This document shows, piece by piece, positions 1-52,366 of a stretch of 52,366 nt of DNA. The notes under the pieces are model-generated. The model did not search any database. It saw only the letters and a list, made by a program, of their open reading frames with translations, and was not told where the DNA came from. Source of the stretch: a virus. Both the position numbers and the translations under genes were made by a program. The stretch lies in IMG/VR virus record IMGVR_UViG_3300030000_000014; one strand, given 5' to 3'. How positions within the stretch are numbered: position 1 is the first letter of the stretch; the number at the start of each line of letters is the position of its first letter.

Positions 1-340
1 TCGACCTACGTGGTACGCAAATCAGTGTCCTACCCGATAACTTGACAGTTGGCGGTTCTCTCGACCTACGTGGTACGCAAATCAGTGTCCTACCCGATAA
101 CTTGACAGTTGGCGGTTCTCTCGACCTACGTGGTACGCAAATCAGTGTCCTACCCGATAACTTGACAGTTGGCGGTTCTCTCGACCTACGTGGTACGCAA
201 ATCAGTGTCCTACCCGATAACTTGACAGTTGGCGGTTCTCTCGACCTACGTGGTACGCAAATCAGTGTCCTACCCGATAACTTGACAGTTGGCGGTTCTC
301 TCGACCTTGAAGGTACGCAAATCAGTGATGAAAGTAAGGT
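1..340 (+). repeat. 60-bp tandem repeat: 5 identical copies (1-300) plus a diverged partial sixth (301-~340). It is in frame and encodes GGSLDLRGTQISVLPDNLTV.
   Basis: Lines 1, 61, 121, 181 and 241 are letter-for-letter identical. The copy at 301 diverges (tcgaccttgaaggtacgcaaatcagtgatg). Confidence 0.97.
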
Positions 341-788
341 AAACCGGAACATTGATGAAAATTCATTTTTCGAGTGGCGAAATAAGAAATACGTAAAGGC
401 TGACGGTATTTTTTCCAAAGTGATTTCTCACAAAAGAAATGTATACAAAATTCAAAAAATAGGTTCTACGAAAGAAACATATTTGGTTACTGATGGAAAC
501 GGAAAGTTCTCACATGGTGAAACAATCAAAGAAGCAAAAGATGATTTGATTTTCAAAATTTCAAATCGTGATAAATCAGACTACAAAGGATTGACACTGG
601 AAAGCAAAATGAGCTTTGAAAAAGCAATTGAATGTTATCGTATCATAACCGGTGCCTGTAGCTTTGGAACGAAAGATTTTGTATCAAATCGACTTATATC
701 AAAAAAGAAAGAATACACAATCGCTGAAATGATTGAAGTCACAAAAGGCGAGTATGGTAGTTCAACTTTTCAAAATTTCTTTATTTAA
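1..788 (+). CDS. LRR-like tandem-repeat protein, 3' part (5' part at 52179-52366 across the contig junction)
   Basis: Reading frame (codons at 3, 6, ...) matches the frame of the ATG at 52179. The 20-aa units fit LxLxxTxIxxLPxxL periodicity. C-terminal ~160 aa are non-repetitive (YRIITGACSFGTKDF) and unrecognised. Confidence 0.8.
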   Translation, partial: DLRGTQISVLPDNLTVGGSLDLRGTQISVLPDNLTVGGSLDLRGTQISVLPDNLTVGGSLDLRGTQISVLPDNLTVGGSLDLRGTQISVLPDNLTVGGSLDLEGTQISDESKVNRNIDENSFFEWRNKKYVKADGIFSKVISHKRNVYKIQKIGSTKETYLVTDGNGKFSHGETIKEAKDDLIFKISNRDKSDYKGLTLESKMSFEKAIECYRIITGACSFGTKDFVSNRLISKKKEYTIAEMIEVTKGEYGSSTFQNFFI

Positions 789-803
789 TAAAACAGTAGC
801 AGT

Positions 804-1715
804 ATGGCAGACGAAAACAAAGTCCCTGTTCGCAAAGTGGACATTCTCAAAAAAACGTTGGGTACGGATAGTATCAACGAACAATTCAAAAACGCATTAG
901 GAGCAAACAGCAATGCGTTTGTAGCAAGTATTATCGACCTGTACACAGGTGATCCTCAATTGCAGACATGCGACCCGAACCTAGTAGTTGCACAAGCATT
1001 GAAAGCAGCAGTTCTGAAACTCCCAATCAACAAGGCATTAGGCTTTGCTTTCATTGTCGTTTTCAATAACTCAGTGAAAACAGAAAACGGTTGGGTGAAA
1101 GTCCCAACACCAACGTTTGTTCCCGGCTACAAAGGCTACATTCAGTTAGCTATGAGAACTGGCCAGTATCGCACAATGAATACCGATGTGGTTTACGAAG
1201 GAGAGCTTCAAAAAGTCAAAAAATTGTCAGGTGAAATCAACTTCGATGGTGTCAAAACTTCTGACAAAATTATTGGGTATTTCGCTTATTTCGAGTTGTT
1301 GAATGGCTTTGAAAAAACGCTCTACATCGATGTTGAAAAAATGTCTAAACACGCTAAACGTTACGCTGCTTCGTTGAAAAATAACAAGGATGTAACGGTT
1401 GAAACGTTGAAAATTCTTGCCAACTCAGAACAGTCAGGTGATAAGGTTGGTTGGCTTGGAAATTTCACAGACATGGCCTTAAAAACATGCTTGCGAAACC
1501 TACTAGCTAAGTGGGGCTACTTATCAGTTGAAATGCAAAGCGTACTTACTTCTGACAACGAAGATTACGACAGCACGGATGACCGTAACAAAGCAATCAA
1601 TGACATTCGACCTAATAACTTGAATATCGAGGATACAGACTTCACAGACGAAACTACTGCAGCGACTACCGAAAGTGAAACTCCAACACCATCAGGAGAT
1701 GGACCAGGTTATTGA
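804..1715 (+). CDS. recT: RecT-family single-strand annealing recombinase
   Basis: 303 aa. Typical RecT core (NLVVAQALKAAVLKLPIN, PGYKGYIQLAMRTGQY) with an acidic C-terminal tail. Confidence 0.85.
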   Translation: MADENKVPVRKVDILKKTLGTDSINEQFKNALGANSNAFVASIIDLYTGDPQLQTCDPNLVVAQALKAAVLKLPINKALGFAFIVVFNNSVKTENGWVKVPTPTFVPGYKGYIQLAMRTGQYRTMNTDVVYEGELQKVKKLSGEINFDGVKTSDKIIGYFAYFELLNGFEKTLYIDVEKMSKHAKRYAASLKNNKDVTVETLKILANSEQSGDKVGWLGNFTDMALKTCLRNLLAKWGYLSVEMQSVLTSDNEDYDSTDDRNKAINDIRPNNLNIEDTDFTDETTAATTESETPTPSGDGPGY

Positions 1716-17874: not shown

Positions 17875-18340
17875 CGAAATGAACTATTGGGCCAAAATGG
17901 AAATTTGCCATTTACCCTTTGCTATGCAAGATATGGTTAGATTCTGTTTAGGCGATTTCATCAATAGTGGTCAAAGTCGTATAGTATTTGAATGGAAGTT
18001 TAGACCAAACACTGTTATAAAGTTCTGCAAGGCTGATGACTGTCAATCTAATTGGACTGAGTATGCAATTTGGGAGTCTGTCAAAGACACTAAAAATGCG
18101 AAGTGGTTTTGTCCTGTCATAGATATATCCCCTTGTGGTAGATTCTTATTAATGGAAAAGGCTCGTGCAATTACTAACGAAGATAAGTTGCCAAAGAAAT
18201 TGCCTAATTTCTTTACTGACATACACACAGGTAACTTTGGATATATCGATGATAGACTTGTTTGTATAGATTATCAGTTCATAACACGTGGTATAGACTT
18301 CGCATTTTGCACACAGAACACAAAAGTAAATTGGAATTAA
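17861..18340 (+). CDS. Protein-kinase-like (APH/choline-kinase-like) fold protein
   Basis: SGQSRIVF (Gly loop), VIK (beta3 Lys), LLMEKA (hinge), TDIHTGNFG (DxHxxN catalytic loop), VCIDY (DFG equivalent). Confidence 0.45.
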   Translation: METNNEMNYWAKMEICHLPFAMQDMVRFCLGDFINSGQSRIVFEWKFRPNTVIKFCKADDCQSNWTEYAIWESVKDTKNAKWFCPVIDISPCGRFLLMEKARAITNEDKLPKKLPNFFTDIHTGNFGYIDDRLVCIDYQFITRGIDFAFCTQNTKVNWN

Positions 18341-19398
18341 TGCCAAAAGTATTCAAATTAGACCCGGAAGCAGCTCACTTTAGTCGTGTAGATCGATACG
18401 CACGACAAGTTGAGCAATTATACCTTGAAGCAATACAGGAAGCTGTAAGCATTGGTTCAACCATATCATTGCCCGAAGGTAGCGACCAGTTTACTTTTGA
18501 CCAATATCCTCAGACTAAAGCAAGGATTGATAAGTTTATGAAAACGATGTCTCAAAAAATGACATTCATTATCAACGAAGCAACTGGCAAAGAATGGTAC
18601 GAAGCTGTAGCCAACAAAGCTAGTTTGATTGATTCATTCATCAAAAAAACACAGCTCACTAAATCACAACTGGAATCGTACAACAGTCGAAATTTGGAAG
18701 CCTTACAAGCATTTCAGAACAGAAAAATTGGCGGTCTCAATCTATCGGAAAAGGTTTGGAAATACACCAACCAATTCAAAGGTGATTTGGAAATGGCGTT
18801 GGACATTGGAATTGGTGACGGACGTTCTGCAGCAGAGTTAAGCCGTGATGTTCGTTCCTACCTAAATGATCCTGAAAAACTTTTTCGAAGAGTTCGTGAT
18901 AAGCATGGAGTATTGCAACTTTCAAAGAATGCGAAGAAGTACCACCCAGGTGAAGGACAATATAGAAGTTCGTATAAGAATGCAATGCGATTGACTCGAA
19001 CATCAATCAACATGGCCTATCGTGAATCGGACTATCTGAAAAATCAGCAGTTAGATTTTGTTGTAGGTTTTAAAGTTGTTCGCTCCAACCACCATTTCGA
19101 TTGTTCTGTTTGTGATTCTTTGAAAGGCAATTATCCGAAGTGGTTCAAGTTTGTTGGTTGGCACCCACATTGCCGTTGTCATATCGAAGATATTCTTGCA
19201 AGCGAAGAAGAGTTCATCAATCACCAAAAACGAATACTTGCAGGTGAAGATGTAGAACTTAAATCAAAGAACGAAGTATCAACACTGCCGGAAGGGTTCA
19301 CTGGGTGGGTTTCCGATAATGAAGAACGGATCACAAATGCAACGAAAAACGGAACACTCCCATACTTCTTGAAAGACAATGCAAAACACTTGAACTAG
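18340..19398 (+). CDS. Head morphogenesis protein (SPP1 gp7 / Mu F-like)
   Basis: ATG at 18340 overlaps the upstream stop. C-terminal VGWHPHCRCH resembles the gp7-family HPNCRC motif. Position after portal. Confidence 0.65.
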   Translation: MPKVFKLDPEAAHFSRVDRYARQVEQLYLEAIQEAVSIGSTISLPEGSDQFTFDQYPQTKARIDKFMKTMSQKMTFIINEATGKEWYEAVANKASLIDSFIKKTQLTKSQLESYNSRNLEALQAFQNRKIGGLNLSEKVWKYTNQFKGDLEMALDIGIGDGRSAAELSRDVRSYLNDPEKLFRRVRDKHGVLQLSKNAKKYHPGEGQYRSSYKNAMRLTRTSINMAYRESDYLKNQQLDFVVGFKVVRSNHHFDCSVCDSLKGNYPKWFKFVGWHPHCRCHIEDILASEEEFINHQKRILAGEDVELKSKNEVSTLPEGFTGWVSDNEERITNATKNGTLPYFLKDNAKHLN

Positions 19399-19519: not shown

Positions 19520-19563
19520 ATGAGCGTATTGCACACACATTTCAATTATTATTGTTAGCTTTA
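19520..19563 (+). promoter_or_regulatory. Diverged seventh copy of the palindrome plus -7 box cassette
   Basis: aTGAGCGTATTGCACACAC resembles the left half of copies D and E. TAGCTTTA lies at 19556-19563 with longer spacing. Confidence 0.4.
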
Positions 19564-19598
19564 CACATTCTTTTAAACAAACAAATAAACACAAGACA

Positions 19599-26600: not shown

Positions 26601-26627
26601 ATCTATTTACTCCGGAACTTTTCGACA

Positions 26628-26669
26628 GAGTAGAGTAGAGTAGAATAAAGAAGAGTAGATAAGAGTAGA
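26628..26669 (+). repeat. GAGTA iteron tract, copy 2
   Basis: (GAGTA)x3-GAataaagaa-GAGTAGA-taa-GAGTAGA. Confidence 0.8.
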
Positions 26670-26707
26670 AAAAAGCATTTTCGCGAACAATTTTTCAGTA
26701 TGAAATT

Positions 26708-40605: not shown

Positions 40606-40694
40606 CTTCCCGAACTTTTGGCAATTATTCCGTCTCGCGCGCGGATCATAAGAGTAGAGTAAAGTAGAGAAGAATAGAGTAGAGTAGAAAAGAG
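40606..40694 (+). repeat. TTCCCGAA box plus GAGTA iteron tract, copy 3
   Basis: CTTCCCGAACTTTTGGC is the reverse complement of 5162-5178. It is followed by CGCGCGCG, then GAGTAGAGTAAAGTAGAGAAGAATAGAGTAGAGTAGA. Confidence 0.75.
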
Positions 40695-40852: not shown

Positions 40853-40885
40853 GTGAGCGTATTACAATCATATTTGCTAGTTTTA
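40853..40885 (+). promoter_or_regulatory. Palindrome plus -7 box cassette, copy E
   Basis: GTGAGCGTATTACAATCAT (identical to copy D), then TAGTTTTA at 40878-40885. Confidence 0.55.
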
Positions 40886-40933
40886 CATATTATTAATTCA
40901 ATATAAAACTAACAGTTTAAAAACAGTATAAAA

Positions 40934-45554: not shown

Positions 45555-46877
45555 ATGGCAACAATAACATTAAGTCTATCAAAGAAATGTAATGAAATTG
45601 GAAAATCTGAAATAATGTTGAGATTTTCCATCAGTAAAGTTCAAAGATACAGAATAAAATCAAATTTATTCGTGTCGGCCAGTCGTTGGTCAAAGAAGAA
45701 TGAAATATCTATTCCTAAGATTGAAACAGAAGAACGCCAACAGCTCGTTTCATTAGCTTCTAGGTTCGATAATTTGAAAGTACATATATTCAAATGTTTT
45801 GAAAATTCAGACAAATCACAAGTTACTAAAGAATGGTTATTTGAATGTGTTGATAGATTTCATTTCCCTGAAAAATATATTGAAGTGATCCATGAGCCAA
45901 CGTTCTTTGATGTCGTGGACGAATTTCTATCAAAACGTAAATTATCTGCCGGAAGACTTCGTTCGATAAATGTTGTATTCCGATCATTGAAGCGTTACCA
46001 ATTGTATAAGCAAAAAACGAATGAATTGTTCATTTTAGATTTGAAAAATATAGATGAAAATATACTTGCTGACATTGAAAAATTTTTCAAGGATGAACCG
46101 ACTGTTTTTGCCAAGTACCCGGACATTTACAAAATTGTAAAAGAGTCAAGAAATCCTGAGCCAAGAGGACAGAACACGGTGAATGATATGTTGGTTAAGC
46201 TAAGAACGTTTTTTATTTGGTGCACCGATAATGAGAAGATTGATTCAAATCCGTTTAAGAAGTTCCCAGTATCAGAGTGTATTTATGGAACTCCGTACTA
46301 TATTAAGATAAGCGAAAGAAATCAGCTTTATGCAAAGAACATGAAAAAGTTACCATCGCTAGCGGTACAAAGAGATATTTTTGTGTTGCAGTGTCTTATT
46401 GGTTGCCGTGTTGGTGATTATTACAAAATGAAGATGTCAAACATAATGGATGGTGCCATTGAGTATATTGCCGGAAAAACAAAAGATGGTAATCCGATTA
46501 CTGTACGTGTTCCTCTCAATTCCATTGCGCTTGAAATTATCGAGCGTTATAAGGATGCTAATAGAGAATCACTAATGCCATTTATCAGCGAACAGAAATA
46601 CAATGAAGCTATCAAAGAAATGTTCACGTTTGCAAAACTGAATAGAATGGTAACGGTTCTTAATCCTACCACAAGGGAAGAGGAAAAAAAACCGTTAGAT
46701 AAAATAGCATCCTCGCACCTGGCACGAAGATCATTTATAGGAAATTTGTACAAGCAAGTCAAGGACCCAAATTTAGTAGGATCATTATCCGGCCATAAAG
46801 AAGGAAGCAAAGCATTTGCCCGTTACCGAGACATTGACGAAGAAATCAAGACTGACTTGGTGAATCTACTTCTGTAG
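45555..46877 (+). CDS. int: Tyrosine site-specific integrase (Bacteroidota phage/CTn type)
   Basis: LIGCRVGD (Arg), SHLARRSF (HxxR), LSGHKE (His), FARY (Tyr). N-terminal arm-binding and SAM-like domains. A TATCTTTG -7 box lies at 45528-45535. Confidence 0.85.
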   Translation: MATITLSLSKKCNEIGKSEIMLRFSISKVQRYRIKSNLFVSASRWSKKNEISIPKIETEERQQLVSLASRFDNLKVHIFKCFENSDKSQVTKEWLFECVDRFHFPEKYIEVIHEPTFFDVVDEFLSKRKLSAGRLRSINVVFRSLKRYQLYKQKTNELFILDLKNIDENILADIEKFFKDEPTVFAKYPDIYKIVKESRNPEPRGQNTVNDMLVKLRTFFIWCTDNEKIDSNPFKKFPVSECIYGTPYYIKISERNQLYAKNMKKLPSLAVQRDIFVLQCLIGCRVGDYYKMKMSNIMDGAIEYIAGKTKDGNPITVRVPLNSIALEIIERYKDANRESLMPFISEQKYNEAIKEMFTFAKLNRMVTVLNPTTREEEKKPLDKIASSHLARRSFIGNLYKQVKDPNLVGSLSGHKEGSKAFARYRDIDEEIKTDLVNLLL

Positions 46878-47935: not shown

Positions 47936-48280
47936 TTATTTGTTTAATGAGTTTTCTATGAGTGTAATAAGTCTGTCAATTTGCTGATCCTTTCGTTCCA
48001 GGCTATCGGCTTGTTTTTTCATTATCTCAAAAGCAATTTGAAGTTCATTTTTATGACCACCATAATGTGGGTGTTCATCAGATACAATTCCACTTTCTGT
48101 GTAATATCTCATTATGTTCTCTTTTCCGTATTTGTCAATTAAAATATTTAATTGCTCTTCGGTCAGGTCTTTTCCGTCATTTTCAATCGCAGATATATTC
48201 GGCTGTTTACAACCTAACAGTATCGCTGCATCTTTTTGTGTTATACGATGCTCTTTTCGCAAACTTTGTAAATCAAACAT
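47936..48280 (-). CDS. XRE-family HTH repressor (cI-like, no S24 peptidase domain)
   Basis: LRKEHRITQKDAAILLGCKQPNISAIENDGKDLT. Divergent from the early genes. Confidence 0.8.
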   Translation of the reverse strand: MFDLQSLRKEHRITQKDAAILLGCKQPNISAIENDGKDLTEEQLNILIDKYGKENIMRYYTESGIVSDEHPHYGGHKNELQIAFEIMKKQADSLERKDQQIDRLITLIENSLNK

Positions 48281-48457: not shown

Positions 48458-48697
48458 ATGGAAAATATGACATCCGAAAGTCAATCGAAAATCGATTTAA
48501 AGACTTTTTACAAGAATCTGCCAAGGGCAGTAGCTCCAAAAACTGATTTTGTTGAACGTGTTGCACTTCAGTGTAATGTAAATGAGCAAACAGTTAGAAC
48601 ATGGGTTGCAGGGACTAATAAACCAAGCGATCCTGCATATATCGAAATATTGGTAAAAGAAACCGGCATTGCTGCCGAAAATCTATTTGAAAAATGA
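48458..48697 (+). CDS. Cro-like / early regulator candidate
   Basis: 79 aa. First rightward gene, with an HTH-like segment (CNVNEQTVRTWVAG). Confidence 0.45.
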   Translation: MENMTSESQSKIDLKTFYKNLPRAVAPKTDFVERVALQCNVNEQTVRTWVAGTNKPSDPAYIEILVKETGIAAENLFEK

Positions 48698-49245
48698 CAG
48701 AGTTTAGCACTGATCCAATGACTGGCGAAGGGATGTACAGAAGAGTTGGTGAATCTGTAGTTAATCAGTTTACCTTAAAAGACACTGACATTGCAGCCGA
48801 ATTGCTCGAAAGAAGTGAAACGTTTTATCCTGAACAAGCAGAAGCTTTAAAAAAGGAGTATGCAAAAAGTTCTGCCAATAAACCGTATTACGATTTTTTG
48901 AGAGCCCGGAGAATAATAAACTGTTGCTTTGGAGAAAATGACCGTCAACCCGATGTTGACCAGTTTGGAAATTACAATTTCGAAATGGTAAAATGTCCAT
49001 TGATAGCAGAATGTAAGTATTTCAAAATTATTTGTCAGCCGAAATTTGATAGTACGCTATCAGCAAGAGAGTTGGAAGTAATGAAAAAGTACTATGAAAA
49101 CTGTAAAACTGAAACGATAGCAGAGGACTTGTTTCTTTCTATCCACACAGTAAAGAACCACCGAAGAAATGCACTTCAAAAGCTTGGATTGCATTCACTT
49201 ATTGAATTTAAAGATTACGCACATAACAACAAACTTTTCAAGTAA
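48694..49245 (+). CDS. LuxR/GerE-type HTH transcriptional regulator
   Basis: C-terminal LSARELEVMKKYYENCKTETIAEDLFLSIHTVKNHRRNALQKLGLHS. Cys-containing N-terminal domain. Confidence 0.6.
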   Translation: MTEFSTDPMTGEGMYRRVGESVVNQFTLKDTDIAAELLERSETFYPEQAEALKKEYAKSSANKPYYDFLRARRIINCCFGENDRQPDVDQFGNYNFEMVKCPLIAECKYFKIICQPKFDSTLSARELEVMKKYYENCKTETIAEDLFLSIHTVKNHRRNALQKLGLHSLIEFKDYAHNNKLFK

Positions 49246-50158: not shown

Positions 50159-52090
50159 ATGAAAATAACACTAAAAAAGCTGACACTCCGAGGATTTAGA
50201 GGGGTCGTTTCAGAAAGTTTTGAGTTTATCGGTCGTGAAACTTTCATTCATGGTCGAAACAAAGCAGGAAAAACATCGCTATACGATGCTTTCCTATGGG
50301 TGAATTTCGGAAAGGACCACTTGGATCGTTCCGATTATCAATTGAAAACTCGTGATTTACTTGGTAACACGAAACCAAAAACAGAATGCGAAGTTGAAGA
50401 AGTTCTTGATGTAGATGGTAAGATTACTACACTCAGACGAGTGTACGGTGAAAATTGGGTAAAACCAAAAGGAGAAGCCGAAGAAGTATTCAAAGGAAAT
50501 ACAACGACCTATTATATCAATGATGTGGACGTACCAAAATCTGAGTACGATGCTTTTGTATTAGGTCTTTGTGGTGAAAAAGTTTTCAAGTCAATTACCA
50601 ACCCGCATTATTTCCCAAGTCTTAGTAAGGACGAACAGAGAGCTTTATTATTCAGCATGGCCGGAGAAATAACCAACGAATCGGTTGCAGCAACTAACAA
50701 AGCATTTCAAGAGTTATTGACTGAAATTACTGGTGTTTCGTTTGACTCTTTCCGTAAGGAATTGGCAGCCAAAAAACGCAGGATAAAAGAGGAGTTAGCC
50801 GGTATTGAACCGAGAATTGACGAGTTGAAAAGAACGATGCCCGAAATTCCCGATCTTGATGCAATCAACAAAGAATTGGAAGAAAAGAAAGGTAAAATTG
50901 AACTTGTCGAAATGTCAATTTCAGACATTGCTAAACAGTCCGAAAGCGTTCAGAAAGAACGGTTAGAATGGCAGGGTGAAATCAACAAGTTGGAGCTTGA
51001 AAACCAACAACTAGGCTTTGAAGAAACTCAAAAGCAATCGCAAGCAATTCAGGAAGTAAAACGTAAGATTGATGTCGTAAAATCAAGTAACCTTGAAGTA
51101 GAAAACAAAGAAGCTCAACGGAAACAGAAAGTAGTTTCTTTGAATAAAGAAAAGGACGAAAAGCTTGAAATTATTGCACAGTATCGCAAAGAATATCAGA
51201 ATATAAATGCTGAAACTCTAACATTTCCCGAAGGAGCTTTTGAATGTCCTACCTGCAAACGATTACTTGAACCGTCAGACATTGATGCAAAGCAAGCTGA
51301 ATTGGTAGCCAATTTCAACAACGAAAAGGCAAGACGGATTGAAGAAAATAAGAAGAAAGGTCTTGCGATTAAAACTCGATTGGATGAAATTGAGAAAGAA
51401 CTTGAACAGCTTGTTGTACCTGTTGAAGCTGAAAAGTTCACAGGCACAAAGTTGGATATTCTAAACGAAGAACTTGTAAAAGTATCACAGCCGATACCGT
51501 TAACCGAAAAGCAAAACGAAAACCAAGGAAAAATAAACTGGTTCCGTTCCAAGCTCAATGAAGAAGTAAATTTGCAAGGAAATCAACGCTTCATTGAAGA
51601 AAAGAACCAACTGCAAGGCGAGATTGATAAATTGAAAGAACGACTTGCATTGAAAGACGTTGTTGAAAATACGAATACCCGGATCAAGCAACTAGAAGGA
51701 CAATTCAAAACACTCAACCAGGAGTTGGCCCATCTTGAAAGAAAAGAATTTACGCTGAAAGAATTTGAATTTGCAAAGAATACTGAATACGAAGTTCGTA
51801 TCAATCAAATGTTCAAATATGTAAAATTCAAGTTATTTGCTCAGCAAGTAGATGGTCAGATTATCCCAACTTGTGAAGCTATGATTGATGGAGTTCTTTA
51901 CTCTACTTTGAACAATGCAGATCAATACAAATGCGGTTTGGATATTATCAATACCATTTCAGCCTATAACGATAAGTACGCACCTATATGGCTTGACAAC
52001 CGTGAGGGAGTAACTGAAATCCCTGAAATGACAGCACAAGTTATCAATTTGGTTGTAAATCCTGAGAAACAAAAACTTACTATCGTTTAG
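50159..52090 (+). CDS. Rad50/SbcC-like AAA ATPase with coiled coil and CxxC zinc hook
   Basis: N-terminal LRGFRG...HGRNKAGKTSLYDAFLWVNFG (Walker A). Long coiled coil with ECPTCKR at its centre. C-terminal IWLDNREG (Walker B/D-loop). Confidence 0.7.
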   Translation: MKITLKKLTLRGFRGVVSESFEFIGRETFIHGRNKAGKTSLYDAFLWVNFGKDHLDRSDYQLKTRDLLGNTKPKTECEVEEVLDVDGKITTLRRVYGENWVKPKGEAEEVFKGNTTTYYINDVDVPKSEYDAFVLGLCGEKVFKSITNPHYFPSLSKDEQRALLFSMAGEITNESVAATNKAFQELLTEITGVSFDSFRKELAAKKRRIKEELAGIEPRIDELKRTMPEIPDLDAINKELEEKKGKIELVEMSISDIAKQSESVQKERLEWQGEINKLELENQQLGFEETQKQSQAIQEVKRKIDVVKSSNLEVENKEAQRKQKVVSLNKEKDEKLEIIAQYRKEYQNINAETLTFPEGAFECPTCKRLLEPSDIDAKQAELVANFNNEKARRIEENKKKGLAIKTRLDEIEKELEQLVVPVEAEKFTGTKLDILNEELVKVSQPIPLTEKQNENQGKINWFRSKLNEEVNLQGNQRFIEEKNQLQGEIDKLKERLALKDVVENTNTRIKQLEGQFKTLNQELAHLERKEFTLKEFEFAKNTEYEVRINQMFKYVKFKLFAQQVDGQIIPTCEAMIDGVLYSTLNNADQYKCGLDIINTISAYNDKYAPIWLDNREGVTEIPEMTAQVINLVVNPEKQKLTIV

Positions 52091-52108
52091 TAATCTTTAA
52101 CTCAATAA

Positions 52109-52142
52109 GTGAGTGTATAACACTCACTTATTGCTAGATTTA
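52109..52142 (+). promoter_or_regulatory. Palindrome plus -7 box cassette, copy F
   Basis: GTGAGTGT-ATA-ACACTCAC (perfect 8-bp arms), then TAGATTTA at 52135-52142. Confidence 0.6.
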
Positions 52143-52178
52143 CATATTATTTAAAACAAACAAATTTATAGTAGCAGT

Positions 52179-52366
52179 ATGGAAAATTACAAGACAAAAG
52201 AAGAAGTTGAAAAACTCTTAGGTGTAAAAATTGAAATTAAAGACGGAAAATTTCATTATGGCGGTTCTCTCGACCTACGTGGTACGCAAATCAGTGTCCT
52301 ACCCGATAACTTGACAGTTGGCGGTTCTCTCGACCTACGTGGTACGCAAATCAGTGTCCTACCCGA
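52179..52366 (+). CDS. 5' part of the LRR-like tandem-repeat protein (continues at 1-788)
   Basis: TAGTAGCAGTATG start. MENYKTKEEVEKLLGVKIEIKDGKFHY, then the repeat units in the same frame as position 3 of the window. Confidence 0.8.
   Translation, partial: MENYKTKEEVEKLLGVKIEIKDGKFHYGGSLDLRGTQISVLPDNLTVGGSLDLRGTQISVLP
52270..52366 (+). repeat. 1.6 further copies of the 60-bp repeat, identical to 1-97
   Basis: Direct comparison of the last 97 nt with the first 97 nt. Confidence 0.95.

Follow-up and report, generated by a model that had tools for sequence, protein, structure and literature searches.

An unannotated phage protein family joins a leucine-rich repeat array of high internal conservation to a new conserved domain

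We have found an unannotated family of phage proteins in which an array of leucine-rich repeats (LRRs) is joined to a new conserved C-terminal domain. The member studied here is the gene that spans both ends of IMG/VR record IMGVR_UViG_3300030000_000014, a stretch of 52,366 nucleotides (nt; hereafter the window) that is a complete temperate tailed-phage genome. Across the family the array behaves like a repeat of "high internal conservation" (HIC), and the C-terminal domain is constant. Alleles with 1, 2, 3 and apparently 5 or more identical units occur on otherwise 100% identical DNA. Such repeat dynamics are known from immune receptors of fungi and animals; our literature searches turned up neither a report of them in proteins of bacterial viruses nor a described phage LRR family.

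The repeat gene and its unit-number alleles

The gene is a single open reading frame (ORF) that, by translation, runs from an ATG at 52179 through the window ends to a stop codon at 786-788. The window is a circularly assembled phage genome of ~52 kb that was cut inside this gene, which has the following parts:

52179..52259, + strand: start codon and N-terminal cap MENYKTKEEVEKLLGVKIEIKDGKFHY (from translation), a predicted helix and hairpin cap conserved in homologues
52260..52366, + strand: first 1.8 identical 60-bp LRR units; the 3' window end falls at unit position 47
1..290, + strand: further identical LRR units, with exact units starting at 51, 111, 171 and 231; the 5' window end falls at unit position 11
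291..350, + strand: diverged terminal unit GGSLDLEGTQISDESKVNRN, which caps the solenoid; the truncated last unit GGxLxLxGTxITD is conserved family-wide
342..788, + strand: conserved C-terminal domain and stop codon, residues 145-292 of the 292-residue form (invariant residues, AlphaFold)

An earlier reading of the letters alone (the sequence-only reading) had reported five identical 60-bp units at 1-300, a diverged sixth, and further units at 52270-52366. Sequence comparison and Tandem Repeats Finder (1-327, period 60, 5.4 copies, 98% matches) agree with it: in the register used there, bases 1-300 are five units identical to the base, and 52270-52366 is an exact copy of 1-97. In the coding register the array at the 3' window end begins at 52260 and the diverged unit occupies 291-350, with its bases 1-17 and 22-37 common to the other units. 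The in-frame translation of each identical unit is GGSLDLRGTQISVLPDNLTV. Since both window ends lie within this perfect array, the number of units is not readable from the window. Joining the ends directly gives a frameshift; a suffix-prefix overlap of 97 nt gives a protein of 292 residues with five identical units and one diverged unit, and an overlap of 37 nt gives 312 residues with six identical units and one diverged unit.

The same phage was found in other assemblies. With the C-terminal 165 residues as query, we obtained a protein of 232 residues (P0001) that is 100% identical except for having three repeat units fewer. Its 90% identity cluster contains three lengths, of 212 residues (18 contigs), 232 residues (2) and 252 residues (1), which correspond to one, two and three identical units plus the diverged one, the rest of the protein being identical. 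Forms with 0, 4, 5, 6 or 7 units were absent as complete ORFs among 15 billion proteins. Eleven contigs (L004, L005 and L165-L173) cross the array unbroken with flanks 100% identical to both window ends, carry the 5' end of the repeat gene (52179..52259), and place the repeat gene between the SbcC-like gene and the RecT gene; in a MEGAHIT contig of 52,156 nt the repeat gene is internal. The window ends are therefore truly adjacent in the phage genome and the array is no product of circularisation, an artefact that the sequence-only reading had named as an outcome that would undo its claim and that these crossing contigs rule out. Other searches for this locus returned nothing: the look-up of the contig encoding the 252-residue allele gave no record, the flank DNA had no match among GenBank phages, and the exact pattern of the upstream junction had no match in the viral_contigs and metagenome_contigs collections, from which the source samples are evidently missing, since L004 contains the pattern.

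The assemblers used bear on how these alleles are to be read. All 18 contigs with the 212-residue form are MEGAHIT k141 contigs, and one-unit contigs at k=141 need 141-mers that run from unique sequence through a unit into unique sequence again; the one-unit form should therefore be real. Two- and three-unit forms are what an assembler at k=127 puts out for any longer array, when the loop is skipped or traversed once, so that the two- and three-unit forms from JGI are lower bounds. A de Bruijn loop arises only if the reads hold unit-to-unit junctions, and with the one-unit form this makes a polymorphism between one unit and at least two units on identical DNA well supported. The arrays of two related phages (L023 and L024), whose flanks are 99.3-99.7% identical, are exactly one 60-nt unit apart in length. 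That the window has five or more units is unverified, because the contig ends in the array and no complete ORF with four to seven units is on record. The window units do not vary, and a one-unit allele exists on identical DNA; the window array is thus a very recent expansion of a single unit. Both the very recent expansion and the length polymorphism in the phage population had been proposed from the letters of the window; the alleles on 100% identical flanks support the second, and together with the identical units and the one-unit difference between the related phages they support the first.

Arrays of this kind leave a mark on assemblies. Of the 79 viral contigs on which a family member was found, the ORF is open at the locus start in 33; without one that lies away from a contig end and two that lie outside repeats, ~30 remain. 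Contigs that end inside the array thus number ~30 of 79 viral and ~29 of 80 genome contigs (~37%), against a random expectation of ~3%. Several scaffolds have N-gaps inside the array. At L086, L110, L121, L155 and L164, which come from isolate genomes and metagenome-assembled genomes (MAGs), the array contains runs of N, so that scaffolding was defeated as well as contig assembly. The arrays give terminal overlaps that are tandem repeat and not genome ends, and the length of the protein depends on assembler settings, which is relevant to calling complete circular viral genomes and to comparing gene lengths from short-read assemblies.

Array evolution, predicted fold and family

Units within a gene are far more alike than units of different genes. 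Averaged over 16 loci, units of the same gene are 98% identical in nucleotides outside four variable codons (100% at six of the 16), and units of different genes are 67% identical, even where the C-terminal domains are 83-88% identical. At 26 loci with homogenised arrays, the within-gene differences comprise 658 nonsynonymous and 340 synonymous ones, counted by pairs that are not independent events. Positions 3, 5, 7 and 8 of GGxLxLxG account for 544 nonsynonymous and 30 synonymous differences. Positions 3, 5 and 7 alone hold 481 nonsynonymous versus 6 synonymous differences, and the other 16 codons, with codon 8 set aside, hold 114 versus 310. The established LRR model places positions 3, 5, 7 and 8 on the outward side of the xLxLx strand. 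In a chromosome-level assembly (L089, OW818699) the array counts at least 17 units, whose last 39 nt do not differ and whose variation is confined to codons 3, 5 and 7. Taken together, family members have units more than ~80% identical, hypervariable positions and unit-number polymorphism, as HIC repeats do; the window allele is without the hypervariable positions.

The periodicity that had been read from the window as LRR-like was borne out by profile and structure comparison. The LRR superfamily is defined by tandem units of 20-30 residues with the core LxxLxLxx(N/T/C)xL; the unit SLDLRGTQISVLP, in tandem copies of 20 residues, fits LxLxxTxIxxLP, and relatives carry the canonical LxLDNNQLTALP. 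The repeat protein matches Pfam LRR_1 at 23.1 bits against a cut-off of 20.6, and a search with the family profile finds FlrP, an LRR protein of solved structure, at E 4.5e-19. A full-length AlphaFold model (predicted local distance difference test score, pLDDT, 90.4; predicted template modelling score 0.77) has short strands at a period of 20 residues. FlrP is its top Foldseek match in the PDB (root-mean-square deviation 1.3 Å over 109 columns, 35% identity), followed by the LRR domains of IpaH, SspH, YopM and the variable lymphocyte receptors (VLRs). As a prediction, a solenoid of 20-residue LRRs with one turn per unit is supported. Its units are not the alternating 28- and 29-residue LRRs of the ribonuclease-inhibitor type.

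The C-terminal 145 residues are predicted by AlphaFold (pLDDT 91.7) to form a six-strand barrel followed by helices. Eight residues are invariant among 144 distinct sequences of 26-90% identity: D165, H202, K216, R244, T247, G248, C250 and G253. In the window the codons of D165, H202 and C250 lie at 402-404, 513-515 and 657-659; in the model His202 is at a strand end and Cys250 directly before a helix. The sequence-only reading had called this C-terminus unrecognised, and it stayed so against five libraries. Pfam (in a scan that included 120 members), PHROGs, NCBIfam and PADLOC gave nothing significant, and Foldseek against the PDB gave a best E of 0.4 and a TM-score of 0.2, with partial SH3-like overlaps only. 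Against BFVD, the model matched only uncharacterised homologues or ones named automatically from the LRR part. The invariant set suggests an active site; this catalytic reading rests solely on the invariant polar residues, because Foldseek gives no known enzyme fold. The motif around the cysteine is ITGACxxG and not the CxD of the C-terminal NEL ubiquitin ligases, which the domain matches in neither Pfam nor the PDB. Matches of the domain profile to WD40 structures in the PDB (E 8e-9) were rejected as spurious, being sums of many 2-bit repeat matches of which none is significant singly. A likeness to clan CD peptidases (His-Gly ... Ala-Cys), sortases or permuted NlpC/P60-LRAT proteins was considered; it gained no support from the fold searches and is not claimed.

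The family is large. An exhaustive profile search returned 1,300 representatives of 50% identity clusters at E ≤0.001, 805 of them at ≤1e-10, so that a confidently folded domain with an invariant polar set, and without a name or a solved relative, is common to at least 1,300 clusters. In all representatives the domain is C-terminal, behind 0 to ~520 residues of repeats; the longest members have more LRR units only, and no fusion to a known domain was found in them. The flavour of the repeat differs by lineage, among 20-residue GGxLxLxGTxITxLPxxLTV, GGxLxLxSLTSIPEGFNPTV and canonical 22-residue LxLDNNQLTALPEGF units, and outside Bacteroidota the repeats are non-LRR ones such as the 9-mer SSGDYSKxA. 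In eight loci from other phyla (L113, L116, L118, L123, L124, L132, L137 and L153) the domain stands behind SSGDYSKxA 9-mers, SNAKLEA..LQTVGGxLSIH units or GSSRVEAx 8-mers. Since the domain follows quite different repeats in other phyla, the pairing of a variable solenoid with it is older than its LRR version.

By contig labels the hosts are mostly Bacteroidales, with Clostridia, Desulfovibrio and Alphaproteobacteria also represented, and the closest host-labelled member is from a Paludibacter MAG (87% identity). Isolated phages with a member include Tetrasphaera phage TJE1, Riemerella phages CRP5 and CRP6, and Dulem virus 31. In TJE1 (L001, NC_019930 39172-39858) the member is annotated as two ORFs, with the LRR half given to orf50 on the opposite strand, which is probably a misannotation. 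A Riemerella phage homologue (OQ789245) is annotated "ribonuclease inhibitor", a name it owes to generic similarity of its LRR units. On contigs of 72-312 kb, which are presumed to come from jumbo phages, there are two or three paralogues whose units are diverged; on one 72-kb contig (L069, L070 and L080) and one 117-kb contig (L083 and L084) these have 8-24 diverged LRR units. Phages of ~30-60 kb, in contrast to these large-contig paralogues, have homogenised arrays.

Genomic context and upstream elements

The window encodes portal, capsid and tape-measure proteins, and the long tape-measure protein suggests a siphovirus-like tail. Its lysogeny genes, the neighbours of the repeat gene and the elements upstream of it are as follows:

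45555-46877: integrase
47936-48280, - strand: cI-like helix-turn-helix (HTH) repressor
50159..52090, + strand: SbcC/Rad50-like ATPase gene, upstream of the repeat gene (phrog_77 at 5.6e-57; Pfam SMC_N)
52103..52133, + strand: perfect 14-bp hairpin between the stop of the SbcC-like gene and the repeat gene, terminator-like, with no clean T-run
52131..52151, + strand: upstream cassette TTGCTAGATTTACATATTATT, also at 40874-40894 and 19552-19572; candidate promoter or regulator site
52171..52182, + strand: start-codon context GTAGCAGTATGG, a 12-mer also present at 796, 6156, 20347 and 41294
804..1715, + strand: RecT gene, downstream, starting 15 nt past the stop of the repeat gene (Pfam RecT at 1.4e-32)

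The repressor gene faces away from a rightward operon of the SbcC-like gene, the repeat gene, the RecT gene and a gene for a metallo-beta-lactamase (MBL)-fold hydrolase. RecT is probably co-transcribed with the repeat gene. Pfam and PHROG matches confirm the placement that had been given to the gene, between a Rad50-like ATPase gene and recT, and its description as an early gene fits the position of the rightward operon beside the divergent cI-like HTH repressor and the integrase. In relatives the gene lies among early recombination and replication genes (ERF, PDDEXK, SSB, DnaB, SMC-like and methylase genes), and no conserved neighbour gene or gene order was found. As to curated defence systems, PADLOC gave only single, weak, scattered matches and NCBIfam none.

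A promoter cassette of the gene's own had also been proposed, and this holds in part: the repeated element is real, but a sigma-70 promoter scan upstream of the repeat gene found nothing above chance. The 21-nt element TTGCTAGNTTTACATATTATT is present at 52131, at 40874 and, with 3 mismatches, at 19552, where 0.04 copies are expected by chance. The copies lie 25-50 nt upstream of the ATGs at 52179, 40934 and 19599, GTGAGyGTAT precedes each, and the element was found only in contigs of this phage; it may be the target of a regulator specific to the phage. At 48694-49245 lies a gene for a GerE/sigma-r4-like protein. In five genes the start codon lies within the 12-mer GTAGCAGTATGG (~0.09 copies expected by chance), which looks like a conserved translation-start context. 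The 93-nt region 52088-52180, which includes the hairpin, folds at -20.9 kcal/mol (z -4.0); an intrinsic terminator scan did not call the hairpin at 52103-52133 and found nothing above chance upstream of the repeat gene.

Other features of the genome were noted in passing. Intergenic arrays of AGAGT-type purine pentamers occur at 26627-26675 and 40651-40694, each after a ..CC(G/C)GAACTTTT.. motif. The MBL-fold hydrolase gene (1867-2589), two genes downstream, has a weak match to the anti-Pycsar protein Apyc1 (26 bits, cut-off 50); since several relatives have it together with the SbcC-like and RecT genes, it may instead encode the recombination nuclease. The head-morphogenesis (SPP1 gp7-like) protein at 18262-19398 has a second match, over residues 222-376, to a PHROG named Bxa ADP-ribosyltransferase.

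Proposed role, alternatives and known systems

We consider it on balance probable that this is a real, unstable LRR gene with a constant effector domain, whose product is a re-targetable binder of the early lytic phase. Unequal crossing-over or slippage between units would drive both the change in length and the homogenisation, and the phage RecT may contribute to recombination between units. The LRR face would bind a variable protein, from the host or a rival phage, through a surface that can be exchanged; the C-terminal domain would be the constant effector, possibly a Cys/His enzyme; and the protein would act in the early part of lytic growth, in taking over the host or countering its defences. 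Several points weigh against this proposal. No annotated homologue points to a function, no partner gene is conserved beside the family, and Foldseek found no known enzyme fold for the C-terminal domain. Five or more units are supported by no complete ORF and could come from assembler loop traversal. The within-gene differences are pair counts and not independent events, and the window allele has no variation on its binding face, which is odd under diversifying selection unless the expansion is very recent.

A bolder form of the proposal, which we think unlikely, is a phage HIC LRR system of early proteins whose binding face is re-targeted within a few generations by duplication, deletion and shuffling of units, perhaps through the adjacent recombinase, and which delivers the new Cys/His enzyme domain to fast-evolving host defence proteins. 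It would be a viral counterpart of repeat evolution in immune receptors and of the IpaH-type LRR effectors. If the LRR face does track host defence proteins, the family would offer a tractable natural case of rapid re-targeting and a compact 20-residue scaffold for binder engineering.

The alternative with the most substance concerns the array itself, whose length in the window could be an artefact of assembly, with one to three real units and both the five-plus units and the 97-nt overlap produced by repeated traversal of a loop. Both window ends lie inside the array, as do the ends of ~37% of the contigs that carry a member; only one, two and three units are on record as complete ORFs, with 0 and 4-7 absent from the 15 billion proteins; and two and three units are the expected k=127 output for a longer array. 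Yet a loop requires k-mers across unit-to-unit junctions, so that at least two to three identical units are real in the JGI samples, and the at least 17 near-identical units in a chromosome-level assembly indicate that long arrays are biologically normal for the family. Arrays beyond the reach of short reads would not appear as complete ORFs in any case, and their absence is expected. We regard the artefact as possible, though doubtful. The remaining alternatives concern function. A prophage defence sensor, in which the LRR array senses superinfecting phages and the C-terminal domain is a toxic abortive effector, as in NLR-like or CapRel-type systems, would suit a temperate phage with an integrase and a cI-like repressor, and the gene's own upstream cassette and preceding hairpin make a moron-like layout. 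HIC repeats with hypervariable sites are moreover typical of immune sensors such as fungal NLRs (PMC11761791). The gene nevertheless belongs to the early lytic operon that runs rightward, with RecT 15 nt downstream on the same strand, and not to the lysogeny module. No NTPase or other switch domain is present, so that the NLR architecture of a NACHT or NB-ARC NTPase with an effector was seen in none of the scanned members; PADLOC gave no significant match; and the family also occurs, with several paralogues, on the 72-312 kb contigs of presumed jumbo phages. We give this explanation little credence.

We think it just as improbable that the protein is an accessory of recombination or replication, either a host-nuclease inhibitor of the Gam or Abc kind or a DNA-end binder whose C-terminal domain would bind nucleic acid through Lys and Arg. 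The gene recurs beside SbcC-like, RecT, ERF, PDDEXK, SSB and DnaB genes, the predicted SH3-like barrel and helices carry the invariant K216 and R244, and LRR nuclease inhibitors exist, the mammalian ribonuclease inhibitor among them. However, the gene order with respect to SbcC and RecT is not kept, and the neighbours are for the most part small ORFs of no relation; a pure DNA binder with invariant Cys, His and Asp residues would be unusual; and the hypervariability of LRR positions points to a target that varies, not to a conserved nuclease. A variable protein of a diversity-generating retroelement, or a receptor-binding protein of the virion, is very improbable indeed, even though variation in relatives is confined to a few codons and LRR folds can act as receptor binders. 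No reverse transcriptase was found among all window ORFs of at least 250 residues, and the variable codons recur in every unit and not in one template/variable pair. The gene is small, lies far from the structural module and encodes no signal peptide.

Our preferred reading, of an unstable LRR array with a constant effector domain, can be set beside four known systems. FlrP, the closest solved relative of the repeat scaffold, is an LRR protein of the Vibrio polar flagellar motor (bioRxiv 10.64898/2025.12.04.692373). In the PDB entry (8Z5U chain 0) it shares the 20-residue LRR flavour LPxGLxVxGxLxLxxTxI with the phage protein, but it is exported by Sec, is periplasmic, binds the flagellar rod, has diverged repeats and is without the phage C-terminal domain; the likeness is limited to the repeat scaffold. 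The type III effectors IpaH, SspH and SlrP likewise join a recognition domain of short LRR units to a conserved C-terminal domain in which a Cys is essential. Theirs is a NEL ubiquitin ligase, whereas the phage domain is a barrel with helices of ~145 residues and has no NEL match, and the phage repeat protein, unlike the IpaH type, is not a secreted effector of eukaryotic cells.

In the HIC repeats of the fungal NLRs HET-E and HET-D of Podospora, the units are 80-100% identical by concerted evolution (PMC11761791). Diversifying selection acts on a small number of hypervariable sites of the binding surface, populations are polymorphic in unit number, and the repeats are mis-assembled from short reads (PMC11761791). 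The phage family shares this signature of concerted evolution, hypervariable sites, length polymorphism and short-read mis-assembly. The fungal proteins, however, are cellular immune receptors in which WD40, ANK or TPR units of 24-42 residues accompany a NACHT NTPase and a death domain; the phage family combines 20-residue LRR units with a new domain in a phage early gene, without an NTPase. Lamprey VLRs and the engineered repebodies are, like the phage proteins, LRR scaffolds in which variation is focused on the beta-strand face, and the variable residues of the phage family (Ser, Tyr, Asp, Arg, Gly and Trp) are typical of binding sites. The diversity of VLRs arises by somatic cassette copying, whereas that of the phage family arises by germ-line duplication and deletion of units and by point changes.

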